IMG/VR virus record: IMGVR_UViG_2737471841_000002
Span: 1 to 7,138 of that record
Source: a virus
Lineage: Duplodnaviria; Heunggongvirae; Uroviricota; Caudoviricetes
Strand: one strand, 5' to 3'
DNA length: 7,138 nucleotides
Of this stretch, positions 1-7,138 are shown in pieces (the first letter of the stretch is position 1; each line of letters starts with the position of its first letter). Under the pieces are notes generated by a model, which saw only the letters and a list, made by a program, of their open reading frames with translations, was not told the origin of the DNA and did no database searches. A program made the translations under genes and the position numbers.

Positions 1-310
1 GGGCAGCTCCTGCCCCACCTGATTCTGGTTGGATTTGTTGTGCATTATCCAGCGTCAGATAAAAAACGTTTGACTGGTTAAGCTCTCCTTTTCTTCTGAA
101 TTCCCTTTTCAAAAGCCCCATCTCTTCCAGTGCCCTAATGTGACTTTTTACTGTCGATCTGCTCACCTCACACTGGTCAGCGACATGTTGATATGAAGGC
201 CAGCATTCGCCATTATCATTGGCGTTATCGGCAAGTTTAATCAGAACCAGTTTTCTCAGTGGGTTGCCAACCTTTATATTCATGGCCTTAGCCATAAGAT
301 TCATGCTCAT
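1..310 (-). CDS. Replication initiation protein (lambda O position), N-terminal 103 codons only; gene continues beyond the window start
   Basis: Minus-strand frame is open from ATG at 310 to the window edge (hand translation MSMNLMAKAMNIKVGNPLRKLVLIKLADNANDNGECWPSYQHVADQCEVSRSTVKSHIRALEEMGLLKREF...). The LADNANDNGECWPS...STV...AL..L pattern looks like the winged-HTH N-terminus of phage replication initiators. Start overlaps the upstream ORF stop (ATGA). It sits downstream of cII as O does in lambda. Absent from the ORF track because it is edge-truncated. Confidence 0.6.
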   Translation of the reverse strand, partial: MSMNLMAKAMNIKVGNPLRKLVLIKLADNANDNGECWPSYQHVADQCEVSRSTVKSHIRALEEMGLLKREFRRKGELNQSNVFYLTLDNAQQIQPESGGAGAA

Positions 311-450
311 TTTGACTTCTCCGAAGTTTTGTACCTGTTAAGTATTTCTCTCAGTGGCACAGCTATTGCTGGATTAACCCCCTGATAAAACTGGTCACGT
401 AGCACATCTTTTCGGTGATTAACGCGTTTATTTTCCTGCGTTTTTCGCAT
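307..450 (-). CDS. Hypothetical small basic protein (47 aa) between cII and the replication gene
   Basis: 3' part of track ORF 307..618; the upstream part overlaps cII out of frame. ATG at 450 is preceded by GAGGT with a 6-nt spacer; stop overlaps the next gene's start. No family recognised. Confidence 0.4.
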   Translation of the reverse strand: MRKTQENKRVNHRKDVLRDQFYQGVNPAIAVPLREILNRYKTSEKSK

Positions 451-455
451 ATAAT
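427..455 (+). promoter_or_regulatory. Candidate Po-like promoter for the oop-like RNA (perfect TATAAT at 450-455, weak -35 TTTATT near 427-432)
   Basis: TATAAT read directly on the + strand about 50 nt upstream of the oop-like terminator; the -35 is poor. Position matches lambda Po (between cII and O, opposite to cII). Confidence 0.4.
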
Positions 456-461
456 TACCTC

Positions 462-531
462 GTTGGATGTTATTAAAATTCCATTTGTATTTGATCAGAA
501 CGCTCGGTCTTGCACACCGGGCGTTTTTTAT
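462..531 (+). ncRNA. oop: oop-like antisense RNA overlapping the cII 3' end, ending at an intrinsic terminator (stem 501-508/516-523, T-run 524-529)
   Basis: + strand gatcagaacgctcggtcttgcacaccgggcgttttttattggtgag closely resembles the lambda oop terminator as recalled. Stem cgctcggt/accgggcg (one G-U pair), 7-nt loop, then TTTTTT. It lies antisense inside the last ~57 nt of cII. The 5' end is inferred from the promoter, not observed. Confidence 0.55.
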
Positions 532-772
532 TGGTGAGTCCATCAAGTGCATACTTAAAAGCCCTGCTAATCGGACTGATGTCTGATGCCATTCCGAAAG
601 CACACAAGACCGAAGCAATAAACCTCCAGTCCGTTCTGCTTATCTTCGATTCATGACAGCCAATCATCTTTGCCAGACCGCGCTGGGTAAGCGTTGACAG
701 GTTGATGAGTAAATCAGTTTCAGCGCGATCAACGTCGCGCTGTGATAGTTTGCTGTAACTTGTTTGTTCCAT
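473..772 (-). CDS. cII: CII-family transcriptional activator of lysogeny (99 aa)
   Basis: Track ORF 473..772. C-terminus LTNKKRPVCKTERSDQIQMEF matches the lambda CII tail (..TNKKRPAATERSEQIQMEF); an HTH-like segment TQRGLAKMIGCHESKISR is present; gene lies immediately downstream of cro. The N-terminal two thirds differ from lambda CII. Confidence 0.85.
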   Translation of the reverse strand: MEQTSYSKLSQRDVDRAETDLLINLSTLTQRGLAKMIGCHESKISRTDWRFIASVLCAFGMASDISPISRAFKYALDGLTNKKRPVCKTERSDQIQMEF

Positions 773-782
773 TTCTTACTAT
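750..782 (+). promoter_or_regulatory. Candidate PRE-like CII-activated promoter (TTGC-N6-TTGT at 750-763, possible -10 TACTAT at 777-782)
   Basis: A TTGCtgtaacTTGT repeat overlaps the first codons of cII on the opposite strand and points toward cI, as lambda PRE does. The second repeat is imperfect (TTGT). Confidence 0.3.
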
Positions 783-836
783 TTCCATAGGTAAATAATC
801 ACTAATACTCATCTTTCGATGAGTGCTTAATTAGTT

Positions 837-871
837 ACCGCGTTGTCGGCGGTGCAGATTGATAAAGAGCG
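837..871 (-). promoter_or_regulatory. nutR: boxA (863-871, reads CGCTCTTTA on - strand) and P22-type boxB hairpin (837-853, reads ACCGCCGACAACGCGGT)
   Basis: Immediately downstream of the cro stop in the PR transcript. boxB matches the P22 nutR boxB as recalled and is an interrupted palindrome ACCGC-CGACAAC-GCGGT. Confidence 0.8.
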
Positions 872-878
872 GTGTTAC

Positions 879-1079
879 TTATGCAGTTGTTTTTTTGTTG
901 CTTGGGAAGGGCTTTATTTCTTCCGCATAAACGCTTCCATCAGCGTTTATAGTTAAAAAAATATTTCGGCCTGCATGAATGGCCTTGTTGATCGCGCTTT
1001 GATATACGCCGAGATCTTTAGCCGTCTTGGTTTGACCAAAGCGCATTGCATAATCTTTCAGGGTTATGCGTTGTTCCAT
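879..1079 (-). CDS. cro: Cro repressor, lambda type (66 aa)
   Basis: Track ORF translation [66 protein letters not shown] is near-identical to lambda Cro as recalled (two conservative differences). Confidence 0.95.
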
Positions 1080-1103
1080 ACAACCTCCTTAGTACATGCA
1101 ATC

Positions 1104-1132
1104 ATTATCACCGCTAGAGGTAAAATAGTCAA
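1104..1132 (-). promoter_or_regulatory. PR promoter (-10 GATAAT = + 1104-1109; -35 TTGACT = + 1127-1132; 17-bp spacer), transcribing cro leftward
   Basis: Hexamers read directly; they overlap OR1 and OR2 exactly as in lambda. Confidence 0.85.
1106..1122. promoter_or_regulatory. Operator OR1 (tatcaccgctagaggta)
   Basis: 17-bp lambda-type operator; one substitution relative to lambda OR1 as recalled (TATCACCGCCAGAGGTA). Confidence 0.85.
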
Positions 1133-1146
1133 CACGCACGGTGTTA
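1130..1146. promoter_or_regulatory. Operator OR2 (caacacgcacggtgtta)
   Basis: Matches lambda OR2 as recalled. Confidence 0.85.
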
Positions 1147-1173
1147 GATATTTATCCCTTGCGGTGATAGATT
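1145..1173 (+). promoter_or_regulatory. PRM promoter (-35 TAGATA 1145-1150; -10 TAGATT 1168-1173), giving a near-leaderless cI transcript
   Basis: Lambda-type PRM hexamers with 17-bp spacing; the cI ATG is at 1180. Confidence 0.8.
1153..1169. promoter_or_regulatory. Operator OR3 (tatcccttgcggtgata)
   Basis: Matches lambda OR3 as recalled; overlaps the PRM -10. Confidence 0.85.
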
Positions 1174-1176
1174 TAA

Positions 1177-1893
<717 letters not shown>

Positions 1894-1924
1894 TTCAACG
1901 CAGCGAAAAAGGGTAATTCAATTA

Positions 1925-2797
1925 ATGGAACATGATGATTTACAGCAATTACCATCCCCATTCGCAAAATGGAAGGGGAAGATCGACTTAGGTGGTGAAA
2001 GTATTGATTGCTATGTGCTTGACACTGGACATCGTGTTATAGCTTTGCGAGCAACTGTAAAAGCAATTGCCAATGCGGAGTCAGGAGACCTGGCTAAATT
2101 TATTGGCGTTAGCTCACTTAATGGCTTTATAGACAAAGACTTAGTCCTGGCCGAACTCATAGAGTTTTCCATACCAGGAACCCAATTTAAGAGCCAAGGA
2201 CTTAAGACTGAGCAATTTGAATTGATTTGTCGCGGCTATGTACAGGCGCTATACAAAGGCGCGCCATTGACAGATAGACAGCGAGAAATAGCAATTAAAT
2301 GCGCTGTATTAACAGCGGGTTTAACTAGGACTGGGTTAGATGCTCTAATTGATGAGGCTACTGGGTATCAGTATGAGCGCGCAGAGGATGCTCTCCAAGT
2401 AAAACTCAGGGCGTTCATCGCTGAGGAACTAAGAGCATGGGAAAAAACATTTCCTGATGAGTTATGGGAAGAATTTGGTAGATTGACAGGATGGAGCACC
2501 CCATTGCAATCAAGGCCCAAATGGTGGGGGAAATTAGTTATAGAGTTAATTTATGACACTCTTGACGAAGATGTGGCTAAATATCTTAAAGAAAACAAGC
2601 CTGCGGCAGGAGTTCACTGGCATAGACAGTTAACCGAGAACCTAGGTGTAAGGCAGCTTGTATCAAGGTGCTGGGAGGTTATTGGGGTCGCAAAAACATG
2701 CGACACCATGCATGAGCTAAGAAGTCGAGTAGCTCAACACTATGGAAAGAAACCTGTTCAAATGACAATGTATTTACCGGAAAAAGAAATTAAATAA
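1925..2797 (+). CDS. Hypothetical protein (about 290 aa) at the rexA/rexB position; candidate lysogen-expressed exclusion or defence gene
   Basis: Track ORF 1829..2797; the first in-frame ATG after the cI stop is at 1925 (MEHDDLQQLP...). Same strand as cI and immediately downstream; followed by an intrinsic terminator. It does not resemble lambda RexA or RexB as recalled; no family recognised by eye. Confidence 0.7.
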   Translation: MEHDDLQQLPSPFAKWKGKIDLGGESIDCYVLDTGHRVIALRATVKAIANAESGDLAKFIGVSSLNGFIDKDLVLAELIEFSIPGTQFKSQGLKTEQFELICRGYVQALYKGAPLTDRQREIAIKCAVLTAGLTRTGLDALIDEATGYQYERAEDALQVKLRAFIAEELRAWEKTFPDELWEEFGRLTGWSTPLQSRPKWWGKLVIELIYDTLDEDVAKYLKENKPAAGVHWHRQLTENLGVRQLVSRCWEVIGVAKTCDTMHELRSRVAQHYGKKPVQMTMYLPEKEIK

Positions 2798-2804
2798 TAT
2801 ACAA

Positions 2805-2830
2805 CCCGGCCTCAGCGCCGGGTTTTCTTT
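2805..2830 (+). terminator. Intrinsic terminator closing the cI/rex-locus transcription unit
   Basis: cccggc-ctcagc-gccggg followed by ttttcttt, directly after the stop at 2797. Confidence 0.7.
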
Positions 2831-2985
2831 GCCTCACGATCGTCCACATAAAAAACATAATCAATTGTATTTATTGAAAAATAAATAGATACAACTCACT
2901 AAACATCGCAATTCTGATCTCTCGATCACACCACCACAGCAACACACCCCGGCAAAAAATAAATCTATATAAAAAACATACATAT

Positions 2986-3002
2986 AACAACCTGCGGTGA
3001 TA
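2986..3002. promoter_or_regulatory. Operator OL3 (aacaacctgcggtgata)
   Basis: Lambda-type operator; two differences from lambda OL3 as recalled. Confidence 0.75.
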
Positions 3003-3005
3003 AAT

Positions 3006-3022
3006 TATCTCTGGCGGTGTTG
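3006..3022. promoter_or_regulatory. Operator OL2 (tatctctggcggtgttg)
   Basis: Identical to lambda OL2 as recalled. Confidence 0.85.
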
Positions 3023-3048
3023 ACAAGCATACCACTAGCGGTGATACT
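3020..3048 (+). promoter_or_regulatory. PL promoter (-35 TTGACA 3020-3025; -10 GATACT 3043-3048; 17-bp spacer)
   Basis: Hexamers read directly and embedded in OL1/OL2; the surrounding sequence resembles the lambda PL region as recalled. Confidence 0.9.
3030..3046. promoter_or_regulatory. Operator OL1 (taccactagcggtgata)
   Basis: Lambda-type operator with one substitution relative to lambda OL1 as recalled (TACCACTGGCGGTGATA). Confidence 0.85.
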
Positions 3049-3093
3049 AAACACATCAGCAGGACGCTGGTAGCCAAACGGAACAGATTGGCA

Positions 3094-3128
3094 TGCTCTT
3101 TAACTTCGATGGGGCGCTGACAAAGCGC
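3094..3128 (+). promoter_or_regulatory. nutL: boxA (tgctctttaa, 3094-3103) and P22-type boxB hairpin (gcgctgacaaagcgc, 3114-3128)
   Basis: boxB is identical to the P22 nutL boxB as recalled (GCGCUGACAAAGCGC), a 5-bp stem with a GACAA loop, about 30 nt downstream of the PL start region. Confidence 0.85.
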
Positions 3129-3247
3129 AAACAGATACCAAACGAGATGGGTTTGGCGGTGATGTGAATTGCAGCTGCAACGACAGCAACCAGAAGATCA
3201 GCACCTGGCGCATCACCACCAAAGCCATTTCACATGAGGAAAATATC

Positions 3248-3556
3248 ATGACGGTAATCGTGTACGGAAAATCAACATTTGCAGGAAATGCCAAAACTCG
3301 CCGTCATGAGCGGCGCAGAAAGCTGGCTATCGAGCGTGATGCTATATGCAACATCATCGATTCGATCTTCGGCACAGACAGTGAGGAACCTGTTCAGGAA
3401 GCCCCGAGAAAGCGTTTAAGCATTTCTGAAAAAGCAATATCACTCGGCATCATTAGCAAATCAAATACAGATGCGAATAGCGGAAGCGTTTGTTTGCCTG
3501 AAGTTGCACTGTATGCTGCTGGTTACAGAAGGCAAAAACTAATTACAGCGAGGTAA
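3248..3556 (+). CDS. N: N-type transcription antiterminator, P22 gene 24 type (102 aa)
   Basis: Track ORF 3164..3556 with internal ATG at 3248 preceded by GAGGA; MTVIVYGKSTFAGNAKTRRHERRRKLAIERD... contains the P22 N arginine-rich motif (NAKTRRHERRRKLAIER) as recalled. It is first in the PL operon and paired with P22-type boxB sites. Confidence 0.9.
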   Translation: MTVIVYGKSTFAGNAKTRRHERRRKLAIERDAICNIIDSIFGTDSEEPVQEAPRKRLSISEKAISLGIISKSNTDANSGSVCLPEVALYAAGYRRQKLITAR

Positions 3557-3558
3557 AA

Positions 3559-3837
3559 ATGAAGCCTAGCATAACAATCAAGCCAGCGAGAGATAATAGC
3601 AGGAACCGCCGCAGAGAGGCCAGGAAGGCAGAAAGAGCAGAGAAGGAAAACAAGAGCCGGGAGGAGAGAAAGGCAGAGATTTTGGAAAAAGGAGGATTGG
3701 CTGCCGTGAGGGGTGAAAAAGCAGCTGAATTAGCAGTAGCTCACGAAAAGACAGAGATTGACAATAATTCTGGTGGAGATGCAATGTTTAAAGTTGTCAA
3801 TCACGCCCATCAACGAAACCCCAAAAAGAAATGGTAA
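3559..3837 (+). CDS. Hypothetical highly charged basic protein (92 aa) with an arginine-rich N-terminal segment
   Basis: Track ORF; ATG two nt after the N stop, with the GAGG Shine-Dalgarno inside the N 3' end (translational coupling). Composition RDNSRNRRREARKAERAEKENKSREERKAE. Confidence 0.55.
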   Translation: MKPSITIKPARDNSRNRRREARKAERAEKENKSREERKAEILEKGGLAAVRGEKAAELAVAHEKTEIDNNSGGDAMFKVVNHAHQRNPKKKW

Positions 3838-3840
3838 TCA

Positions 3841-3862
3841 ACCCGTCCAAGACGGGTTTTTT
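3841..3862 (+). terminator. Intrinsic terminator (tL1-like) after the 92-aa ORF
   Basis: acccgtccaagacgggtttttt: GC-rich stem then T6, three nt after the stop. Confidence 0.7.
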
Positions 3863-3894
3863 ATTGCAAGCAAACCACTTATTTGAGGTGAGAT

Positions 3895-4146
3895 ATGGAG
3901 TTTCATGAAAGTGCGATTTGTGATTTTCGCGCTAACGCAAATTCAGTAAAACCACAGCCAATTGCAGTTCTTTTTAAAACAATGGGTGCGTGGGCTGTTT
4001 TATGCTTCGCCGCTGATGACACTGACGCAAGAATGGCAATAGGCCAAGAGATGGAGATGGACCCGACAAACGATGAATTCATAATTTATGGCGCTCCATC
4101 TAATTACTTACTTGATACCTGCAACATTTACAACAAGGCTGCCTGA
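3895..4146 (+). CDS. Hypothetical protein (83 aa) with a hydrophobic central segment
   Basis: Track ORF; GAGGTG Shine-Dalgarno 5-10 nt upstream of the ATG. No family recognised. Confidence 0.5.
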   Translation: MEFHESAICDFRANANSVKPQPIAVLFKTMGAWAVLCFAADDTDARMAIGQEMEMDPTNDEFIIYGAPSNYLLDTCNIYNKAA

Positions 4147-4282
4147 TGGTGGCCTTTATTTTTGGCATAAACAACAGAATAAACACTGCACTGTGTATTC
4201 ATTCCAACGAGTGAATACACGGAGCAATGTCGCTCGTAACTAAACAGGAGCCGACTTGTTCTGATTATTGGAAATCTTCTTT

Positions 4283-4310
4283 GCCCTCCAGTGTGAGGGC
4301 AATTTTTTTT
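4283..4310 (+). terminator. Intrinsic terminator (tL2-like) directly upstream of the next gene's ribosome-binding site
   Basis: gccctc-cagtgt-gagggc followed by aatttttttt. Confidence 0.7.
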
Positions 4311-4322
4311 GATGGAGGATAT

Positions 4323-5291
4323 ATGAGTGAAGTAACAGATTTAGTTGTTATTGAAAAAGCAAATGCAATGACTGTATTTCAGTCTGCCGACCAGATTGAA
4401 GAAATCCTTCAAAAGGTTGAACGTGAAGTTATGTCCTTTGTGCCTGATATCACAACGGCAAAGGGCAGAAAGGAGATCGCTTCTCTGGCGTATAAAGTTG
4501 CGCAGACGAAAACATATCTCGATGGTCTTGGCAAAGACCTTGTTGCTGAACTGAAGGAAATTCCAAAGCTAATTGATGCCAACCGCAAGACAGTGCGTGA
4601 TCGACTTGATGAGCTGAAAGCCAAGGCACGCCAGCCTCTTACTGATTATGAGGATGAACAGGCACGGATTAAAGCCGAAGAAGAAGCTAAGGCAGCAGCT
4701 GAAGCTCTCGCAAAGCAAATTGAGTCTGACCATGAAATAGCGATTTTGATGGATCGCGAATTTGACCGCCAAAGAGAAGAGGCAAGACTCAAAGCGGAGC
4801 AGGAAAAGCGAGAGCATGAAGAACGCTTAAAAAGAGAAGCTGAAGAGAAAGCCAGAGCAGAAGCCGAAGCAAAGGCAAAAGCAGAAATTGAAGCAGCAGC
4901 AAGACGAGAAGCAGAGGCTAAGGCCGCAGCGGAACGTGCAGAGCGTGAACGCATTGAAGCCGAGCAACGAGCACAGCGCGAAGCAAAAGAGGCAGCAGAA
5001 CGAGCTGAAAAAGAAAAGCAGGCAGCAATTGAAGCAGAACGCAGAAAAGCACAGGAGGAGGCTGAACGAATCCGTCGCGAGGCTGAAGCAAAAGAGCAAG
5101 CCAGAATCGCAGAAGAAAAAAGAATCAAGGACGAAGAAGAGCACAGAGCAAAGGATAAAGCTCACCGGAAAGAAGTAAATAACAAAATACTTGCTGACCT
5201 TATCAAGGTTGGCGCATCAGAAGATGTTGCTAAAAATATCATAACAGCCATCGTAAAAGGCGAAGTATTCGCAACAAAAATAACCTACTAA
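4323..5291 (+). CDS. Hypothetical protein (322 aa): N-terminal domain, ~180-aa E/A/K/R-rich helical region, short C-terminal domain
   Basis: Track ORF 4227..5291; internal ATG at 4323 is preceded by GGAGG and lies downstream of the terminator at 4283-4310, so 4323 is the likely start. The central region is a degenerate charged repeat (EAEAKAKAEIEAAARREAEAKAAAERAERERIEAEQRAQREAKEAAERAEKEK). Confidence 0.7.
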   Translation: MSEVTDLVVIEKANAMTVFQSADQIEEILQKVEREVMSFVPDITTAKGRKEIASLAYKVAQTKTYLDGLGKDLVAELKEIPKLIDANRKTVRDRLDELKAKARQPLTDYEDEQARIKAEEEAKAAAEALAKQIESDHEIAILMDREFDRQREEARLKAEQEKREHEERLKREAEEKARAEAEAKAKAEIEAAARREAEAKAAAERAERERIEAEQRAQREAKEAAERAEKEKQAAIEAERRKAQEEAERIRREAEAKEQARIAEEKRIKDEEEHRAKDKAHRKEVNNKILADLIKVGASEDVAKNIITAIVKGEVFATKITY

Positions 5292-5315
5292 TAAAACCAA
5301 CATAAGGAACCACCC

Positions 5316-5462
5316 ATGATTTACGCAATCGCGGGAGGCGCTCGCATGGGTGCCTTCCAACTAAATGAATCTTTACTTGAACGAATCACCCGTAAATTAC
5401 GTGACGGATGGAAACGACTCATCGACGTACTTAATCAGCCAGGAGTTCCAAAAAATGGATAA
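5316..5462 (+). CDS. cIII: CIII-like protein (48 aa), the lambda FtsH inhibitor that stabilises CII
   Basis: Hand translation MIYAIAGGARMGAFQLNESLLERITRKLRDGWKRLIDVLNQPGVPKNG; its core matches lambda CIII as recalled (ESLLERITRKLRDGWKRLIDILNQPGVPKNG). AAGGA Shine-Dalgarno upstream. Below the ORF-track length cutoff. Confidence 0.7.
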   Translation: MIYAIAGGARMGAFQLNESLLERITRKLRDGWKRLIDVLNQPGVPKNG

Positions 5463-5568
5463 AACACTTATGGCTATTCAGACTAAATTCACTATCGCCA
5501 CTTTTATTGGCGATGAAAAGATGTTTCGTGAGGCCGTCGAAGCCTACAGAAAATGGAGGTCTAAATGA
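5455..5568 (+). CDS. kil: Kil-like host cell-division inhibitor (37 aa)
   Basis: Internal ATG of track ORF 5365..5568, preceded by AGGAG; MDKTLMAIQTKFTIATFIGDEKMFREAVEAYRKW resembles the lambda Kil N-terminus as recalled. Overlaps the cIII 3' end by 8 nt. Confidence 0.6.
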   Translation: MDKTLMAIQTKFTIATFIGDEKMFREAVEAYRKWRSK

Positions 5569-5753
5569 TTCCGGTAGAGCTGGCGAAAACTCCAGAGTTA
5601 AGTCGATTAAAAAGAGAATATCACATTGCTGAGGCTCGTTACTGGCGTAAAGCGGGAGATAAATCAAAGAAACAACTTTGTTTATGGCAAGCACAAAGAG
5701 AGCGCATGAATGAGCGCGAATTTCTTTCCTCCCCATCCGAATTACCATTCTGA
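5565..5753 (+). CDS. Hypothetical protein (62 aa) in the position lambda uses for gam
   Basis: Track ORF; start overlaps the kil stop (ATGA). No resemblance to lambda Gam as recalled. Confidence 0.45.
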   Translation: MIPVELAKTPELSRLKREYHIAEARYWRKAGDKSKKQLCLWQAQRERMNEREFLSSPSELPF

Positions 5754-5761
5754 GGTGAATT

Positions 5762-6469
5762 ATGGATTTGAATAAATTCGATGAGCCATTCAGCCCTGAA
5801 GATATCGAATGGCGAATACAGCAAAGCGGTAAAACACGCGATGGAAAAGTGTGGGCTATGGTGCTGGCTTATGTCACGAACAGGGCAATCATGAAACGCC
5901 TGGACGATGTTTGCGGCAAAGCAGGATGGCGCAATGAATACCGCGATATTCCCAACAACGGAGGCGTTGAATGCGGCATATCAATCAGGATTGATTCCGA
6001 ATGGGTAACCAAATGGGATGCTGCTGAAAACACGCAGGTAGAAGCCGTCAAAGGTGGTCGTTCAGGTGCAATGAAGCGTGCTGCCGTTCAGTGGGGAATC
6101 GGTCGGTATCTGTATAACCTTGAGGAAGGTTTCGCACAAACATCTCTCGATAAAAAGCAGGGGTGGCACAGGGCAAAACTGAAGGATGGAACAGGATTTT
6201 ACTGGCTCCCTCCATCGCTGCCGGGATGGGCAATCCCAGCATCAGATAACAAACCATCACCAGAAAATACCAACCAGAAATCTCCATCGGTTGACTGCGA
6301 ACAAATCCTGAAAGACTTCAGCGATTATGCGTCAACAGAAACTGACAAGAAAAAACTCATCGAGCGTTATCAGCGTGACTGGCAATTAATGGCTGGCAAC
6401 GAGGAGGCGCAGGCTAAATGCGTTCAGGTAATGAACATCAGAGTTAACGAACTAAAACAGGCGGCATAA
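5762..6469 (+). CDS. Rad52-like single-strand annealing protein (phage recombinase, 235 aa)
   Basis: Track ORF; GAGGTG Shine-Dalgarno. The segment EAVKGGRSGAMKRAAVQWGIGRYLY parallels the conserved Rad52 motif (EAVTDGLKRALRSFGNALG); gene is immediately followed by ssb. Confidence 0.75.
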   Translation: MDLNKFDEPFSPEDIEWRIQQSGKTRDGKVWAMVLAYVTNRAIMKRLDDVCGKAGWRNEYRDIPNNGGVECGISIRIDSEWVTKWDAAENTQVEAVKGGRSGAMKRAAVQWGIGRYLYNLEEGFAQTSLDKKQGWHRAKLKDGTGFYWLPPSLPGWAIPASDNKPSPENTNQKSPSVDCEQILKDFSDYASTETDKKKLIERYQRDWQLMAGNEEAQAKCVQVMNIRVNELKQAA

Positions 6470-6943
6470 ATGGCAAGCAGAGGCGTAAATAAGGTGATCA
6501 TTATTGGTCGCCTTGGGCATGATCCAGAAATCAGATATTCACCATCAGGAACGGCATTTGCAAACCTTACCGTTGCTACGTCAGAACAATGGCGTGATAA
6601 GAAAACTGGAGAGCAAAAGGAGCAGACGGAGTGGCACCGCGTGGTAATGAGCGGGAAACTGGCAGAAATTGCCAGCGAATATCTGCGAAAAGGCTCTGAT
6701 GTTTATCTTGAAGGCAAATTGCGGACAAGAAAATGGCAGGATCAAAGTGGACAGGATCGGTTCACTACCGAAGTCATCGTGGGCGTTGGTGGAACCATGC
6801 AAATGCTTGGTGGCAAGCAAGGAGGCAATGAACAGTCTTCACCTCAGCGAAATAACGGTCATCAACAAAGACAGCAACCTCAGCAGCATGGAAATCACAG
6901 CGAACCACCTATGAACTTCGACGATTCGGATATTCCGTTCTAG
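6470..6943 (+). CDS. ssb: Single-stranded DNA-binding protein (157 aa)
   Basis: Track ORF resembles E. coli SSB along its OB-fold region ([16 protein letters not shown]...TEWHRVV...[11 protein letters not shown]) as recalled, with a Gly/Gln-rich linker and acidic tail ending DDSDIPF. Start ATG abuts the upstream stop (TAAATG). Confidence 0.95.
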
Positions 6944-6952
6944 GAGCTGAAT

Positions 6953-7138
6953 ATGAAAATCTGCTCAAGATGCCATCAACAGAAGGAAGAAAGGGACTTT
7001 CAAATCAGAAGAGCATCCAGAGATGGATTAACTGCCGCTTGCCGGGCTTGCCTGGCTGAATATGACAAAGAGCGCGCGGGATTGCCACATCGAGTATCAG
7101 CAAGGAGAGAATATCAATCATCGGAACGCGGCAGAGAA
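6953..7138 (+). CDS. Hypothetical Cys-rich protein, N-terminal 62 codons only; runs off the window end
   Basis: ATG at 6953 preceded by AGGAG with a 6-nt spacer; hand translation MKICSRCHQQKEERDFQIRRASRDGLTAACRACLAEYDKERAGL... has two CxxC-like pairs (C4, C7, C30, C33). Confidence 0.45.
   Translation, partial: MKICSRCHQQKEERDFQIRRASRDGLTAACRACLAEYDKERAGLPHRVSARREYQSSERGRE

Follow-up and report, generated by a model that had tools for sequence, protein, structure and literature searches.

What takes the place of rexA-rexB in a lambdoid prophage whose immunity region is otherwise lambda-like, and what would the substitute do in the lysogen? The question is raised by IMG/VR virus record IMGVR_UViG_2737471841_000002, of which positions 1 to 7,138 (7,138 nucleotides, hereafter the window) form a lambdoid immunity region with a single 290-aa gene (1925..2797, plus strand, read from the ATG at 1925) lying between the repressor gene cI and the OL operators. 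An earlier note, made from the sequence alone, had described an unrecognised open reading frame (ORF) of about 290 residues in the rexA/rexB slot, and had proposed it as a candidate for defence or lysogenic conversion. Our analysis places the gene in the P63C family and suggests, with modest confidence, that it encodes a single-protein abortive-infection factor resembling BstA of Salmonella prophage BTP1, and that it carries within its own codons an element resembling aba, the DNA site that goes with BstA.

The cassette fits its slot exactly. The lambda-type repressor gene cI (1180..1893, plus strand; 237 aa, HTH_3 and Peptidase_S24 domains), presumably the first gene of a PRM operon, is 97.5% identical to lambda cI in a BLAST comparison with lambda and has its stop codon at 1893. 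In the same comparison, homology to lambda ceases at 1894 and picks up again at 2803, and from this gap (1895-2802) it follows that the cassette substitutes exactly for rexA-rexB. The left boundary is a 31-nt spacer between cI and the ORF (1894..1924, plus strand), where AGGG at 1910-1913 lies 11 nt 5' of the ATG. The open frame itself spans 1829-2797 (322 aa) and starts inside the 3' end of cI; the start residue at ATG 1925 is common to orthologues in Salmonella, Klebsiella, and Enterobacter. At the right boundary stands an intrinsic terminator (2803..2832, plus strand), a homologue of lambda tIMM that is common to other cargo genes. Its hairpin at 2803-2824 has 8 pairs, 6 of them G-C, followed by TTTTCTTT, and is laid out as AACCCGGC-N6-GCCGGGTT and then a T-run. 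Further on are lambda-like OL3, OL2, and OL1 operators and the PL promoter (2985..3048, plus strand; -35 at 3020, -10 at 3043), recognized from the sequence, a promoter scan, and the lambda alignment. The cI and OL flanks together are ∼95% identical to lambda, and the P63C gene is antisense with respect to PL. The earlier note was thus accurate both in its coordinates and in calling the repressor, operators, and terminator lambda-like. Its statement that the cargo is unlike RexA or RexB also holds, as the one gene there resembles neither protein in sequence or domains, lambda homology is absent between 1894 and 2803, and P63C is the sole Pfam family matched. A terminator scan gave no terminator-like site between cI and the ORF, and a promoter scan gave no internal promoter on the plus strand within the gene. 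This anatomy, with its 31-nt gap, no intervening terminator, and a shared tIMM-like terminator 3' of the gene, would fit co-transcription of cI and the P63C gene from PRM.

The gene is not without relatives, as the earlier note had supposed. Residues 161-245 (2405..2659, plus strand) match Pfam P63C (PF10546) at 79.8 bits against a cutoff of 26.1 (E = 2.3e-22), and the protein matches PHROG 2384 at 1e-86, a PHROG that carries no function. All 77 aligned relatives match the P63C hidden Markov model, and a word-indexed search returned 2702 homologues, which form 1987 clusters at 50% identity; P63C members range from Streptococcus to Alphaproteobacteria. The family takes its name from the C-terminus of p63 of Myxococcus phage Mx8 (UniRef name). 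The P63C domain is said to have been described first in a 2002 survey by Iyer, Koonin and Aravind, reportedly the same survey that defined KilA-N. PADLOC, its BstA model included, gave no match at E up to 1; NCBIfam gave none to the 290-aa protein, and neither did PDB sequence searches with the single protein or with a profile. The searchable full-text literature yielded no function for P63C; the three papers in it that name P63C together with phage are not functional studies. Orthologues at 75-90% amino acid identity occur in Pseudomonas, Delftia, Aureimonas, Sulfitobacter, and Caulobacterales, so that the range runs from Enterobacteria to Alphaproteobacteria. Pairwise nonsynonymous divergence (pN) among them is 0.08-0.18 and synonymous divergence (pS) is 0.76-0.93, which is saturated. 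Low pN at saturated pS establishes the ORF as a true gene, and the conservation reflects old, strong purifying selection rather than recent transfer.

Selection acts on more than the protein. We aligned the codons of 29 diverged orthologues and scored codon identity given the same amino acid. Synonymous change is suppressed over codons 46-84 (2060..2176), with a core at codons 64-84, where codon identity is 0.64-0.70 versus ∼0.35 expected from a per-residue baseline (z ∼20, up to 21); codons 46-63 form a shoulder, and the remainder of the gene is at baseline. Amino acid identity at codons 64-84 is below the gene average, and the constraint therefore acts on nucleotides. The best-conserved stretch in the consensus of the 29 orthologues, TTTATAaACAnnGACTTAaTCCTGGnnGAA, lies at 2126..2157; within the constrained region Leu75 is written CTG in 25 of 26 orthologues and Glu77 is written GAA in 24 of 25. 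Two candidate explanations for the conserved stretch were rejected. RNAalifold predicted 0 pairs on 20 orthologues, and a 53-aa antisense ORF over the stretch (2011-2172, minus strand) has no conserved start and is broken by stops in many orthologues.

The constrained region holds a pair of direct repeats, which a repeat search of the sequence reported independently (family D2): R1 (CCTGGCT, 2089..2095, codons 55-57) and, 57 bp 3' of it across an AT-rich spacer, R2 (CCTGGCC, 2146..2152, codons 74-76). The conserved core just named lies immediately 5' of R2 and includes it. Over 42 unique orthologues of at least 46% identity, the hexamer CTG-NNN is the same in R1 and R2 in 35, and it falls into seven classes (CTGGCC, CTGGCG, CTGGGT, CTGGGC, CTGCAG, CTGGTC, and CTCGAG). 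Seven orthologues are exceptions, five of them at one base, the window copy included (GCT vs GCC). Codon identity between R1 and R2 is 0.76, compared with 0.17 when partners are shuffled, and none of 20000 shuffles reached the observed value. The two copies thus co-vary. At the aligned position the repeat is found in 0 of 24 sequences below 36% identity, and no recurrent repeat at 57-bp spacing was found in or near the gene in the scanned members below 50% identity; its absence from distant members makes the element specific to this P63C clade. We note one orthologue at 86% identity with a BTP1-type repressor upstream (L038/L097, IMGVR_UViG_2884403191_000002) in which the protein-guided codon alignment shows a 39-column gap and the frame is lost exactly over the conserved core and R2 (codons ∼66-80); either the element or the gene may have been lost naturally here.

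A repeat of this kind has a precedent. The BstA-aba pair of BTP1 has demonstrated defence and self-immunity functions (Owen et al. 2021, PMC8585504), and aba is a 63-bp, DNA-based element with terminal CCCGCC repeats, cognate to each BstA (PMC8585504). We located aba at L014 29002-29064, where the CCCGCC repeats are 56 bp apart, and extended the search to 53 unique BstA loci. Of these, 66% contain a sequence of 6 nt or longer that recurs exactly at a distance of 55-58 bp, versus 3.8% in shuffles; the repeats mostly begin at about -28 to -40 relative to the start codon, and they differ between homologues (CCCGCCA, CCACCA, GGGCAGCA, GGTCAGCA, GATCCC, TGGTCA, and others; L256-L335). Taken together, the repeat scans of both families show that variable, co-varying direct repeats 56-57 bp apart mark BstA and P63C loci alike. 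The BstA scan also extends the aba architecture beyond the three loci originally tested, and it allows cognate aba classes to be predicted.

The genomic setting of the orthologues points in the same direction. Among 26 close orthologues on IMG/VR viral contigs, ∼13 lie within 300 bp 3' of a co-oriented CI-type repressor, and these repressors matched several different seed types. At four IMG/VR loci (L020-L022 and L038) the P63C gene follows a BTP1-type repressor, which makes it and bstA alternative occupants of a single slot. In P22-like phages of Salmonella (SI8 and relatives) a 90% orthologue lies between repressor and N, and in a Pseudomonas chlororaphis prophage the P63C gene follows an S24 repressor, with two small ORFs in between. 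More divergent genes keep similar company: a group at 57% identity (L045-L051) is arranged as ImmA-like peptidase, 100-aa ORF, P63C, and then integrase, and in the S. pyogenes prophage Javan515 (L013 2980-3873) a 31% relative lies between repressor and integrase.

The slot itself is variable, as the earlier note had said in calling it a hotspot for defence genes and as a survey between cI-family repressors and OL confirms. With cI and OL flanks that are ∼95% identical, lambda, SfI, and ev243 carry rexA-rexB; mEp234 and HK106 carry hicA-hicB-hicC, HK97 carries gp49-gp48, ev099 a NYN-domain gene, and mEp332 a GspM-like gene, while HK244, HK542, HK544, CL707, and PhiR5_2 carry assorted hypothetical genes. 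DUF1828 or DUF2335 cargo occurs in phages that have other repressor types and share the terminator flank, and bstA occupies the equivalent slot in BTP1. Two papers (bioRxiv 10.1101/2024.02.24.581848; PMC8585504) treat the cI-OL slot as a defence locus of variable content or a hotspot, and both cite Degnan et al. 2007. P63C cargo is rare there. The 3' half of cI is found in 1214 of 5426 complete E. coli genomes and the cI-P63C junction in 9 only; 11 genomes in all carry the P63C gene, and at the DNA level it was found in none of the deposited phages. As a side observation on how cargo is exchanged, homology of the P63C cassette to prophages of other immunity types begins within the repressor gene, ∼28 nt before its 3' end (window 1864-1893; L001 5973-; L012 3447-), and because of this position the conserved C-terminal codons of CI-type repressors seem to be the left recombination joint of the slot.

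The predicted structure offers a division of labour. An AlphaFold2 model (predicted local distance difference test 89) has an alpha/beta N-terminal domain (∼residues 12-110; 1958..2254, plus strand) and a helical C-terminal half that contains the P63C domain. A search with the model, a route the earlier note had pointed to, succeeded in part: Foldseek gave no match in the PDB, and in BFVD the fold list was mostly Bro-N, BRO, KilA, and 'repressor domain' proteins with weak E-values, on which the N-terminal domain is tentatively assigned a Bro-N/KilA-N-like fold and is presumed to bind DNA. Pfam gave no sequence match to Bro-N or KilA-N, P63C being the only family found at E up to 0.01. At the end of a long helix (residues 117-146) lies the motif DEATGYQ (residues 143-149; 2351..2371, plus strand), which together with R152 is nearly invariant (at least 90%) across the 77 family members, down to 28% identity. 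It corresponds to no known motif; catalysis or ligand binding by the P63C half could take place there.

From these observations we propose the following mechanism. The lysogen would make the P63C protein from the cI (PRM) transcript, and its Bro-N/KilA-N-like N-terminal domain would bind DNA. An infecting phage would be blocked by the protein, most likely at DNA replication, as an abortive infection, with the helical P63C half and its conserved DEATGYQxxR serving as the effector or partner-binding part. The R1/R2 pair (2089-2095 and 2146-2152) would be the cognate self-immunity site, the analogue of aba: when the home prophage replicates, copies of the site would bind or titrate the protein and so spare the phage's own growth. 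The position in place of bstA, the aba-like repeat, and the BstA-like N-terminal half thus lend support to the defence role for which the gene had been put forward. By sequence criteria we would file the candidate as a variant of BstA-type defence rather than as a member of the BstA family, since its C-terminal half does not match the BstA C-terminal domain.

Several observations weigh against this proposal. R1 and R2 lie ∼165 nt inside the ORF, whereas the repeats of bstA lie across the start codon, and in the E. coli lineage of the window the two copies are unequal at one base. For a defence protein, 75-90% identity between proteobacterial classes is unusually high. The Foldseek E-values for named Bro-N matches are 5e-3 or worse, and similarity to BstA is weak even in the N-terminal half, where hhalign probabilities are 4-15%; the C-terminal halves, compared for the BstA C-terminal domain (PF26567), are unrelated (P = 0.22). 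A search of the accessible literature found no phenotype, expression, or binding data for P63C proteins. A 349-aa P63C protein at 28% identity (NP_049495; L011 3333-4382) is encoded by Stx2 phage 933W and relatives of that phage; its gene, flanked in the nin region by a DNA methyltransferase and roi, is without the 57-bp repeat. Judged by their gene order, such distant members are placed for lytic expression, so the whole family is not only lysogen-expressed.

Among the rival explanations the one that survives best, though we regard it as unlikely, is that the protein binds DNA to regulate its own prophage and has no part in defence, with the repeats as an internal operator or roadblock that tunes the PRM operon or the lysogeny-lysis switch. 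The Bro-N/KilA-like N-terminal fold would suit such a role, as would the very high conservation of the protein, and an operator-regulator pair would also give co-varying repeats. An extra N-terminal Cro/XRE-type helix-turn-helix (HTH) is present in ∼15 of the 77 family members; it points to a function on DNA and favours the BstA-like reading as well. Some close orthologues at 75% identity have a P22_Cro/YdaS-like HTH extension at the N-terminus (L006 6001-7101; P0103, P0108, P0111, P0116, P0120). For RexA, from the same slot, DNA binding and an effect on the switch have moreover been reported (PMC12894663). However, the gene stands behind repressors of several seed types with different operators and cannot fit one switch. 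It also occurs at prophage edges with no repressor nearby, where the HTH-extended orthologues retain the R1/R2 repeat. Finally, variable repeats at 56-57 bp match aba, which is a self-immunity rather than a regulatory element.

Considerably less probable is that the protein is an early lytic regulator or antirepressor of the Bro, Ant, or Roi type that stands after cI by chance and acts in lytic growth or against other prophages. Distant P63C members do lie in lytic early regions beside roi, Rha-type, or AntA-type genes, and Bro-N proteins commonly carry an antirepressor annotation. The present clade, however, is found in lysogeny modules, either behind co-oriented repressors or between immunity genes and integrase; the gene stops at the terminator that closes the rexAB operon in lambda, and if read from PL it would be antisense.

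We give equally little credence to the view that the repeat is a by-product of protein structure, arising from paired helices or an internal peptide duplication, and that the gene is a lysogenic-conversion factor with no cis element. The R1 and R2 peptides are alike (DLAKFI and VLAELI) and fall in adjacent helices of the model (56-60 and 71-76), and residues 57 and 76 co-vary as A/A, G/G, Q/Q, V/V, and E/E. Yet the synonymous choices co-vary too: R1 and R2 change together between GCC and GCG (GCC/GCC vs GCG/GCG), between GGT and GGC (GGT/GGT vs GGC/GGC), and from CTG to CTC (CTC/CTC vs CTG/CTG). The third positions of eight neighbouring codons are also conserved, including a TTA (Leu) that is retained in Pseudomonas and Aureimonas loci whose GC content exceeds that of the gene. 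Selection at the protein level explains neither the synonymous co-variation nor the conserved third positions. Least probable of all is a role in replication or partition, with the repeats and AT-rich spacer as an origin of the iteron type or a partition site that an initiator-like protein binds, much as the lambda origin lies within the O gene. The lambdoid relatives of the window, however, already have an O/P-type replication module, an initiator made constitutively from PRM would harm the lysogen's host, there are two repeats only, and the DnaD match, at 64 residues, is short as well as weak.

Returning to the BstA-like reading, we would extend it, more tentatively than the reading itself, to the possibility that this P63C clade and BstA form one mechanistic class of prophage immunity, with a shared Bro-N/KilA-N-like reader, repeats 56-57 bp apart, and interchangeable C-terminal effectors. 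In the P63C clade the recognition site would be written into the codons of the reader domain, so that protein and self-marking site could diversify together, as the seven repeat classes may reflect. This wider reading would also give P63C, with its ∼2000 clusters at 50% identity, its first function. If the BstA-like reading is true, self-immunity through a DNA site in cis, so far known for one family, would extend to a second, unrelated effector, and the combination of suppressed synonymous change with co-varying repeats 56-57 bp apart would serve as a computational mark for self-immune prophage defence genes. It would also bring one more tested cargo to the defence hotspot that lambdoid phages have between cI and N.

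The remainder of the window indicates a mosaic phage, in which lambda immunity is joined to P22/Sf6-like early-left genes beyond OL. On the cI side lie cII (473-772, minus strand) and cro (879-1079, minus strand). Beyond OL, the N gene (3164-3556, probable start ATG 3248) is P22-type and not lambda-type; its arginine-rich motif, GNAKTRRHERRRKLAIERD, is one that we take to be P22-type (gene 24). At 5762-6943 there is a recombination module of a Rad52-like annealing protein and a single-stranded DNA-binding protein (SSB), as in Sf6 and IME10, and between N and this module lie genes without an assigned role. One of them (4227-5291) encodes a 354-aa protein that is extremely rich in Glu, Lys, and Ala, to which the strong AT skew at 4227-5291 is due; it has no Pfam match and is annotated as TolA or 'cell envelope biogenesis protein' in mEp234 and APC_JM3.2.

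How, then, does the P63C cassette compare with known systems? It shares with lambda RexA-RexB the slot, the cI and OL flanks, the terminator, and presumably the PRM transcript, and differs in that RexA-RexB is a system of two genes, one of which encodes a membrane protein; the cassette has been swapped outright. HicA-HicB-HicC of mEp234 and HK106, and HigBAC, are likewise alternative cargo of the cI-OL slot, and the type of system to which HigBAC of this slot belongs reportedly acts against phages (bioRxiv 10.1101/2024.02.24.581848). These are multi-gene toxin-antitoxin-chaperone systems, whereas P63C is a single gene without a partner ORF. With the Bro-N/KilA-N proteins (Bro, Roi, Ant, and KilA types) the likeness is in the modelled fold of residues ∼12-110; those proteins are mostly lytic-cycle regulators, in contrast to the position of this P63C clade in lysogeny modules.

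BstA is the closest comparison, and it too is imperfect. Full-length hhalign gives a probability of 4%, and we rejected membership of the BstA family. The C-terminal half is P63C and all-helical in the model, whereas that of BstA has helices and strands; the repeats occur inside the ORF (codons 55-77) rather than spanning the start codon; and P63C keeps 75-90% identity over a taxonomic range where BstA homologues keep ∼50%. Against these differences, each is a single protein of ∼300 aa whose gene lies between the prophage repressor and N, immediately 3' of the repressor and in the same orientation, the P63C gene stands in for bstA behind BTP1-type repressors, and both have homologues across alpha-, beta-, and gamma-proteobacteria. 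Both would have a KilA-N/Bro-N-like N-terminal half: in the model the order of secondary-structure elements in residues 13-146 matches that of BstA 19-146, and hhalign of the N-terminal halves gives P = 0.0017 (probability 15%, 125 colinear columns), with controls at 0.22 and 0.34. At the sequence level the two loci share direct repeats 56-57 bp apart around an AT-rich spacer, with both copies changing together from one variant to the next.

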